Source: Escherichia phage EC.P1. From it: a stretch of 64,000 nt of DNA. The position numbers and the translations under genes were made by a program. The notes under the pieces were generated by a model. That model made no database searches. It saw nothing but the letters and a program-made list of their open reading frames with translations, and was not told the origin of the DNA. The DNA is taken from sequence record PQ657772.1. The stretch is one strand, 5' to 3'. Shown in pieces: positions 18,690 to 19,312 of this stretch; position 1 is the stretch's first letter; the number at the start of each line of letters is the position of its first letter.

Positions 18690-19250
18690 ATTATACACGC
18701 TTCGCATGTCTAATTCAACGAAAGTACTATGATTTGTTTTAATTAATATTGACGGGGTTTGCTTGAGCATATTTCATCCCCCCGCAGGGGAAAGAACAAA
18801 AAAAGTTTGACGCTGGTGGCCTTCACATAGTTCATATCACGAATTCTCTTACGAGGCGAAAGCGGGTTGCTCTGTTTCTCTCTATCGCGGTTCTTGTAGC
18901 AACGGTCGTCGGTCTTAAACATCCCGACACATAATACAAATACCATATGACCAGTACTTGTATTTGATTTCACGAATTTTGGACGCAACTATATTGTATA
19001 AATTACGACCGCAAATTTCTCATGAAATCTCCCTTAGATAATTGGTAAGGTGCGATCCTTATATGTCTATCGAGGAACTCTCTTTATCCTATTGGAGTTC
19101 TTTATACAGCCGCATTGCCGTGAGTGGTTCAAACTATGCCATCATCTAACGGGTTTCATTTGCTGTTCGTACTGAAAGGACTACTCATCTACCCTCTACT
19201 TTTCGAGTGGATTAGGCTTTAATCATTTCCATATGGAACCTTTCAGGATT
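18690..19250. other. GC-richer non-coding island (about 560 bp)
   Basis: No credible ORF (track ORF 18743..18988 looks non-coding); local GC clearly above background. Confidence 0.5.
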
Positions 19251-19282
19251 AAAAAAAGGCGACAACATATTCTGCTGTCACC
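19251..19282 (-). terminator. intrinsic terminator downstream of 19313..20161
   Basis: Minus-strand RNA: GGUGACAGCAgaauaUGUUGUCGCC followed by UUUUUUUAAU. Confidence 0.55.
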
Positions 19283-19312
19283 TTACATTATATCATAAAC
19301 TTATGGTCTGTC

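Follow-up and report, generated by a model that had tools for sequence, protein, structure and literature searches.

The DNA analyzed in this work is a stretch of 64,000 nucleotides (nt) from Escherichia phage EC.P1 (sequence record PQ657772.1), an Asteriusvirus among the Rak2-like jumbo coliphages, and the whole stretch is referred to below as the window. Between two minus-strand genes of the window lies an island (18683..19312) whose region is 99.6% identical to that of phage WPEC5, 99.5% to fEgEco12, and approximately 95% to 121Q and PBECO4. A first-pass annotation made from the letters alone had described a GC-richer non-coding island between two gene blocks and had considered a structured non-coding RNA, a decayed gene or intron remnant, or a horizontally acquired fragment. 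We propose that the island very probably contains a functional gene for a structured RNA of a new family. The features of the locus are as follows (aa, amino acids; ORF, open reading frame; bp, base pairs).

ending at 19313, minus strand: 282-aa ORF, the upstream gene
19309..19315, minus strand: -35-like TGAGACA from a consensus scan, overlapping the upstream gene's stop codon and conserved in alignment columns 73-79
19287..19295, minus strand: extended -10 box TGATATAAT from the same kind of scan, with a predicted RNA start near 19280
19253..19284, minus strand: hairpin and U-run from a terminator scan (12-bp stem, 5-nt loop, T7 tail)
~19280 to ~18750, minus strand: extent of the proposed RNA gene, length ~475-530 nt
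18743..18988, minus strand: 81-aa ORF with a TTG start, a chance ORF within the RNA gene
beginning at 18682 or 18636, minus strand: 198-aa ORF, the downstream gene

The island is intergenic and non-coding

Each of the two flanking ORFs aligns nearly end to end with a PHROG family of unknown function (phrog_15199, positions 1-263 of 263; phrog_16210, positions 3-189 of 191), and 18683..19312 is therefore a true intergenic gap; the two ORFs are separate genes in all relatives examined. The GC content is 0.395 in 18690..19312 and 0.419 in the conserved core, compared to 0.333 in the window, so that the island ranks at the 96th percentile among 623-bp windows; the enrichment is clear but moderate. 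The description of a GC-richer non-coding island thus holds, and the sole ORF, which had been called implausible, is indeed spurious: the 81-aa ORF has no Pfam or PHROG match, and the insertions and deletions (indels) of its homologues are not multiples of three. Between two and six tiny "hypothetical proteins" are annotated over the element in the GenBank records of WPEC5, WPEC3, JP4, E9.1, Kaldavass, and 7t3, and in Kaldavass and 7t3, where the strand was checked, they sit on either strand. These small proteins are over-annotation of a non-coding region.

Across the family, indel lengths relative to the window copy fall into all three remainders after division by three (898 with remainder 1, 312 with remainder 2, and 248 with remainder 0), and the longest ORF differs in strand among members. 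None of the ORFs on the element matches Pfam or PHROG, and taken together these results speak against a protein-coding gene. Protein homology, or a lack of conservation and structure in related genomes, had been named beforehand as findings that would speak against a structured RNA; both were looked for and neither was found.

Covariation, strand and family membership

Conservation together with covariation strongly supports the structured RNA among the options considered at first. Sixty-four family members less than 95% identical to one another were aligned with MAFFT (alignment A1) without fitting to any structure, and helices were taken from a column-pair scan of the columns and from inspection. 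Standard pairs fill 94.6% of the 5385 cells of the modelled helices, versus 75.4% after shuffling (a value as high as the observed one was reached in 0 of 500 shuffles) and 38-43% when the partner strand was slid by 1-3 columns. Changes on both sides are found in 68 of the 87 pairs, and compensatory cells number 1040 against 287 expected. An independent RNAalifold run, made on an earlier alignment, arrives at P4a, P5, P6, P8, and P12, at least, of the model described below, and most helices are also recovered when the window copy is folded as a single sequence.

The modelled pairs contain 433 G-U cells versus 63 A-C cells, and this excess identifies the minus strand as the RNA strand; the pairing is 94.6% assuming the minus strand and 87.7% assuming the other. 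The z-score of single-sequence folding is -1.75 for the minus strand and -0.67 for the plus strand. Two profiles place the window copy in the family: an nhmmer profile built without the window copy and its 121Q orthologue matches 19251..18743 on the minus strand (E = 7.7e-115), and a profile built from bacterial copies alone finds the window copy (E = 2.6e-68).

Fold of the RNA

The RNA is modelled with about 15 helices (P1-P15) and three supported pseudoknots, and more than 70 nearly invariant unpaired nucleotides occupy its junctions. In the window copy P1-P14, PK1, PK2, and the crossing of P10 with P12 can all form, and the invariant junction motifs are present. The parts in 5' to 3' order of the RNA, all on the minus strand, are given below.

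19169..19246: 5' domain, in which P1 (19239-19246 with 19172-19179) encloses hairpins P2 and P3
19227-19238: hairpin P2, inside P1
19189-19215: hairpin P3, inside P1, with the conserved loop GAAAAnGUA
19184-19189: invariant GAUGAG of the 5' domain
19182-19184 with 19169-19171: pseudoknot PK1, 3 bp, which brackets the 3' strand of P1
19106..19166: P4, made of P4a (19162-19166 with 19106-19110) and P4b (19149-19152 with 19118-19121)
19075-19100 and 19046-19061, within 19029..19100: hairpins P5 and P6 (helices 7 and 8 of the pair counts)
19061-19071: invariant GAUAGACAUAU between P5 and P6 (invariant alignment columns)
19029-19036: invariant unpaired UAAGGGAG (invariant alignment columns)
18964..19028: P7, a peripheral hairpin of variable size, long in the window copy with the UACAAUAUAG module at its tip
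18933-18964: hairpin P8, with double changes in 12 of 12 pairs
18945-18950 with 18832-18837: pseudoknot PK2, between the P8 loop and a strand ~110 nt downstream (double changes in 6 of 6 pairs, 99.5% paired)
18907-18929: hairpin P9, following P8
18832..18908: most conserved core, with CGACCGU, comprising P10-P13 plus the 3' strand of PK2
18899-18903 with 18866-18870: P10, which crosses P11 and P12 and thereby forms an H-type pseudoknot
18885-18889 with 18838-18842: P11, in the core
18878-18882 with 18858-18862: P12, in the core
18846-18855: P13, nested inside P11
18743..18826: 3' module, conserved in all members and lying beyond the conserved body (P1 at 19246 to PK2 at 18832)
18809-18826: P15 region, ending in CCAGCGUCAAA and followed by a U-run (18796-18804)
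18778-18792: hairpin P14, a C-run/G-run with CCCCUGCGGGGGG, in which the only variation is from C to U, with G-U pairs kept
18750-18761: second CAAACCCCGUCA motif (CGUCA type), in the 3' module

In the 5' domain both-side changes affect 8 of 8 pairs in P1, 5 of 5 in P2, and 5 of 5 in P3, and PK1 is 100% paired across the 64 sequences with the variants UA, AU, and CG. P4a and P4b (helices 5 and 6) are 100% and 99.6% paired, respectively, with compensatory changes in P4a; the conserved internal loops of P4 are AAAUGAAAC and CAAUGCG, and its variable insert (19122-19148) comes in three size classes in the family. The core helices (12-15) are 95.8-100% paired with compensatory changes in each, and the core block contains the invariant AGAAAC.G....ACCCGCUU, which served as a query in the motif scans described below. 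PK2 occurs in the sequence classes UCAUAU/AUAUGA, UUGUAU/AUACAA, UCAUGU/ACAUGA, and UCGAAU/AUUCGA.

P7 follows UAAGGGA directly in 22 of the 22 members that were folded singly, as well as in the single-sequence fold of the window copy; its size varies between a few base pairs and a long stem tipped by the UACAAUAUAG module. A hairpin module whose conserved loop reads UACAAUAUAG(A/U)UCCGUC (alignment columns ~480-530 and 665-700; window 18975..19015) caps P7 in most members and P13 in others, and a few members have it on both; it behaves like a swappable peripheral module. For P15, no one pairing register fits all subgroups; this helix is weak in the window copy and was left out of the counted structure. 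CGUCA(G/A) motifs at 18809..18817 and 18750..18761 flank P14 and change in concert, both becoming CUUCAAG in phage RaK2 and CGAAG in a distant subfamily.

Predicted promoter, terminators and RNA ends

We infer that the element would be transcribed from its own sigma-70-type extended -10 promoter (19315..19287) as a stand-alone minus-strand gene for a large structured non-coding RNA. The promoter is a consensus match to the sigma-70 extended -10 class (TGnTATAAT with a -35-like hexamer 16-17 bp upstream), and TGnTAYAMT stands at the -10 position in 59 of the 64 family members. This promoter class occurs four times on the minus strand of the window versus 0.09 expected, which argues that the RNA would use a standard phage promoter fitting the host sigma-70. 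The three further matches of TG(R)(R)AC-N13-16-TGnTATAAT on the minus strand are at 2529..2558, 4752..4780, and 8362..8390; this appears to be a promoter type that recurs in the phage. Minus-strand promoters formed by the CGUCAA motifs (TTGACG on the other strand) were considered as well and rejected, as no usable -10 box follows.

The first-pass annotation had ended the island with a minus-strand intrinsic terminator. The hairpin and its T-run are present (19284..19256), but their placement was mistaken, as they lie at the upstream end of the island when it is read along the minus strand. Located between the -10 box and the RNA body, the hairpin at 19253..19284 appears to be the intrinsic terminator of the preceding gene and probably also serves as the 5'-terminal stem-loop of the RNA, with the predicted start at ~19280 falling in its 5' arm. 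The order of -10 box, hairpin, and U-run is shared by same-locus orthologues in other genera; the other 121Q copies have no such hairpin. At the opposite end, a canonical terminator follows P15 in about half of the family members, and in the window copy the terminator scan finds no canonical terminator between the RNA and the downstream gene.

Copies in Rak2-like jumbo phages

Sensitive blastn searches with the island found 61 phage records, all of Rak2-like jumbo phages, with hosts in Escherichia, Salmonella, Erwinia, Yersinia, Xanthomonas, Serratia, Cronobacter, Pectobacterium, and Klebsiella; among isolated phages the element was found solely in this group. A core of ~480 nt is 67-76% identical in distant genera, and each genome has 4-5 matching places. 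The window contains one copy. The whole genome of 121Q contains four, all on one DNA strand that corresponds to the minus strand of the window:

90.3-90.8 kilobases (kb): copy after a sigma-factor gene
192.7-193.4 kb: orthologue of the window copy
247.5-248.0 kb: a further copy
326.7-327.1 kb: copy between endonuclease VII and the baseplate-hub operon

The three non-orthologous 121Q copies are 70-73% identical to the window copy. The window copy type keeps its gene neighbors in Kaldavass, XbC2, 7t3, Serratia BF, GAP32, and, in a more diverged form, RaK2, always upstream of a hypothetical gene, a Dam-type methyltransferase gene, and a cytidylyltransferase gene. The type adjacent to endonuclease VII keeps its neighbors in 121Q, CBB, and fHe-Yen9-04; in 121Q this copy diverges from the endonuclease VII gene and converges on the next gene. 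Since neighbors are kept across genera, both types predate the split of these genera. The suggestion of a horizontally acquired fragment therefore stands only in part: the family is common to jumbo phages and to bacterial prophages and islands, but the copy at the window locus, with the same gene neighbors in six other Rak2-like phages including RaK2, is old and not a recent insertion.

Among the copies of one genome, PK2 falls into three or four sequence classes, and some co-resident copies share a class; in the model, PK2 could in principle also form between molecules. In 121Q a region of ~2 kb (135194..137161) carries no annotated gene; it is unrelated to the RNA family, since the family profile finds nothing there.

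Copies in bacteria, islands and metagenomes

Motif scans of IMG/VR, GTDB species genomes, and metagenomes, filtered with nhmmer, brought more than 100 full-length members. A second motif scan of IMG/VR with GATAGANNTATN{12,42}TAAGGGA gave mostly chance matches and two further true members. Full-length copies are found in bacterial genomes, which was unexpected: in Serratia fonticola, another Serratia, Citrobacter amalonaticus, Enterobacter chinensis, Silvania hatchlandensis, Buttiauxella, and other Enterobacteriaceae. The bacterial copies are single, and in most of the loci with neighbors examined they directly follow a gene for an integrase of the tyrosine or the large serine recombinase type. 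Five of them are followed by a convergent cI-like repressor gene (helix-turn-helix plus S24 peptidase), in four cases with a Ner-like gene next, and this order of integrase, element, and convergent repressor is the end of a prophage. No transfer RNA (tRNA) or transfer-messenger RNA (tmRNA) gene was found by ARAGORN in nine bacterial loci with the element, where tRNA genes had been considered as integration targets, and the plasmids searched gave no match to the element.

Small islands are among the bacterial settings. The Serratia fonticola copy lies at the edge of an island with a serine recombinase gene and two ParB-like genes. Around 4775..5490 of the locus sequence, an 87-aa ORF, which we take from its sequence to be rof, with a neighbor taken to be tilS, stands on both borders of this island in nearly identical copies; integration probably made this duplication. 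In E. coli, 2 of 5426 complete genomes carry the element, in an island of ~10 kb beside ffs, and these copies were left unannotated by PGAP (Prokaryotic Genome Annotation Pipeline). In E. coli LR-29-1 the RNA lies within a 1.4-kb unannotated gap (locus sequence 8868..10297) of the ffs-adjacent island, which also carries DUF4326, DUF488, dual-OB-domain, and recombinase genes and an integrase gene disrupted by IS3.

A distant subfamily from uncultivated phages (contigs L162, L169, L189, L192, L201, and L214) keeps the 3' half of the RNA (P7-P14) and has a remodelled 5' half. In contig L162 the element stands beside baseplate-hub and portal genes, as does the endonuclease VII-adjacent copy in 121Q.

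Proposed function and alternative explanations

Given an RNA gene, action in trans, as RNA, is what we would favor on balance, with appreciably less confidence than the existence of the gene itself: no protein gene accompanies the RNA across its three settings, and copies run convergent with the next gene. The RNA might work alone, either as a ribozyme or by self-assembly in the manner of the ornate phage RNAs, or it might bind a ubiquitous host factor, for example the ribosome, RNA polymerase, or an RNase. Its wealth of invariant nucleotides in the junctions is reminiscent of the cores of ribozymes and ornate RNAs, not of simple regulatory RNAs, and therefore favors an autonomous machine or a host-factor binder. 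More tentatively, the family may be a new class of large functional RNA (a ribozyme or self-assembling RNA-only particle) that has no dedicated protein and serves conflict between phage and host or between phages. Jumbo phages would then keep 4-5 specialized copies and temperate elements one, and the RNA could, for example, serve as a decoy for a host factor of defence or RNA processing, inactivate such a factor, or hijack the ribosome or RNA polymerase.

Several points weigh against the proposal of a stand-alone RNA gene of a new family. One alignment served both to choose the helices and to count their pairs, which somewhat inflates the counts; still, pairing stands far above both controls, and the slid-partner control, like the two structure predictions, speaks for a real effect. 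For this phage group, whatever is said here of the promoter, of either end of the RNA, and of its abundance is prediction. Since no terminator separates it from the downstream gene, the window copy could also serve as a long leader. P14 and the second CGUCA motif are conserved as strongly as the core although they lie beyond internal terminators, and a simple gene made of promoter, RNA, and terminator does not explain this conservation; the conserved 3' module may reflect a function at the DNA level or in read-through. As for novelty, a 2023 catalogue of 10,006 viral candidate structured RNAs, some of them reported upstream of adenine methyltransferase genes (PMC10690425), may already contain fragments of this RNA.

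The alternative that survives best, unlikely as it seems to us, is a cis-acting leader RNA, which would work on its own transcript or on the polymerase making it, for example as an element of processive antitermination (like the HK022 put RNA) or as an attenuator, and so control read-through into the downstream genes. It would account for the open path from the window copy into the hypothetical gene, the methyltransferase gene, and the cytidylyltransferase gene, for an RNA that begins at or inside a terminator hairpin which its own transcript must pass, for the conserved sequence past internal terminators, and for the two CGUCA motifs, whose joint variation in RaK2 and the distant subfamily would fit alternative pairings. 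However, the downstream genes differ at every copy; the endonuclease VII-adjacent copy of 121Q and five bacterial copies meet convergent genes and have nothing downstream to regulate; copies at the edges of small islands are without an obvious target operon; and known put-type elements are ~70 nt, versus ~500 nt and three pseudoknots here. For the 3' module a read-through (cis) or DNA-level role remains alive.

Less likely still is a replication-origin module, in which a structured primer RNA would be held in a persistent RNA-DNA hybrid, as in ColE1 RNA II or the R-loop origins of phage T4, and the 4-5 copies would be several origins of a 350-kb genome. The 121Q copies are dispersed (90, 193, 247, and 327 kb) in one orientation, the phage encodes RNase H and UvsW-like proteins, the RNA is close in length to RNA II (~550 nt in ColE1), and the G6 run of the 3' module, flanked by C-runs and conserved past the terminators, could favor a hybrid. 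Primer RNAs, however, need neither dozens of invariant junction nucleotides nor three covarying pseudoknots, the prophage and island copies stand beside integrase genes, several with a cI-like repressor gene and with no replication gene seen adjoining, and the points in its favor are indirect, the idea being an analogy.

That the island is a decayed or unusual protein gene, or a remnant of a self-splicing intron or mobile element without function as RNA, is highly improbable and already contradicted by the data: the 81-aa ORF, the small hypothetical proteins of several GenBank records, and the homing-endonuclease genes common in these genomes could be taken in its favor, but the annotated ORFs differ between records in strand and position, match no protein family, and are not conserved, the indels are not in threes, the helices covary with G-U on one strand only, the intron models of Rfam give no match, each flanking gene is a complete member of its family, and gene neighbors constant across genera argue against recent mobility.

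An RNA gene of this kind would matter for several reasons. Large, highly structured RNAs of bacteria and phages are rare, and most of their classes are either central machines (RNase P, tmRNA, and self-splicing introns) or still puzzles (OLE, GOLLD, ROOL, and raiA). The 4-5 old copies per genome, and the sharing of the family by lytic jumbo phages and integrating elements, suggest a function relevant to very different lifestyles. Cultured phages of E. coli carry the element (121Q, PBECO4, phAPEC6, fEgEco12, and others), as do a few chromosomes of E. coli and Serratia, and it is thus amenable to ordinary genetics, RNA sequencing (RNA-seq), and cryo-electron microscopy (cryo-EM). Annotation is also corrected, as many GenBank records put invented "hypothetical proteins" on the element.

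Comparison with known RNAs and mobile elements

The window was compared to the covariance models of Rfam 15, as the first-pass annotation had advised, including those for group I and II introns, RNase P, 6S, GOLLD, ROOL, HEARO, OLE, raiA, riboswitches, and small ribozymes. No model matched in the window at the gathering threshold, only chance-level scores appeared in 18500..19500 at E up to 10, and five other loci with family members gave no match over the element. ARAGORN found no tRNA or tmRNA in the whole window, in agreement with the earlier failure to recognize a cloverleaf by eye. The element is not mentioned in the literature searched, including the genome paper of the 99.5%-identical phage fEgEco12 (PMC13070987). 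On this evidence, and with the reservation about the catalogue of PMC10690425 given above, the family would be a new RNA class. For PA5oct, a distant relative of the Rak2-like phages, four non-coding RNAs supported by RNA-seq are reported (PMC7318152). Two of them, ncRNA001 and ncRNA002 (764..999 and 14452..14902), were tried as relatives and rejected, with no profile hit and no family motif.

In its size range, long-range pseudoknots, and highly conserved core the element is like RNase P RNA, group I introns, and tmRNA. The strand order of P10, P11, and P13 recalls P3, P7, and P8 of group I introns, and the short motifs AGAUGAG and ACAG..ACCCGCUU recall conserved regions of RNase P RNA. Unlike these RNAs, however, the element matches no covariance model at E up to 10 and has no pairing between its 5' and 3' ends; unlike group I introns it has no exons and its flanking genes are intact, and unlike tmRNA it is not detected by ARAGORN. 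The resemblances to catalytic RNAs are short and in a different order, and are leads only. Likeness to RNase P RNA, a group I intron, or a hepatitis delta virus (HDV)-like ribozyme was considered and dropped because no covariance model scores, and a self-splicing intron was rejected because the flanking ORFs are each complete and are not two halves of one frame.

With ColE1 RNA II and the T4 R-loop origins the element shares a sigma-70-type promoter and a non-coding transcript of ~500 nt, both predicted here, as well as several dispersed copies in a T4-related genome. It differs from them in being far more structurally constrained (three pseudoknots and invariant junctions) and in standing also beside integrases. 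Like phage morons, the self-contained units of promoter, gene, and terminator that phage genomes have acquired, it has its own promoter, its own terminator in many copies, a base composition unlike its flanks, and a place beside integrases in prophages and islands; unlike morons its cargo is RNA instead of protein, and the jumbo-phage copies are old, with kept neighbors, and not recent additions.

The closest analogues in kind are GOLLD and ROOL. The element matches neither model in sequence or structure, and the likeness is one of kind and not of sequence. GOLLD and ROOL belong to Firmicutes and to rumen and lake bacteria, whereas the hosts here are Enterobacterales and their Rak2-like jumbo phages; no tRNA gene lies beside the copies examined, and there are 4-5 diverged copies per genome. 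What the element has in common with these ornate phage RNAs (cryo-EM study PMC12286853) is a length of several hundred nucleotides with many helices, pseudoknots, and invariant unpaired positions, together with its predicted nature as a self-contained non-coding gene of phages and prophages that has no dedicated protein partner.

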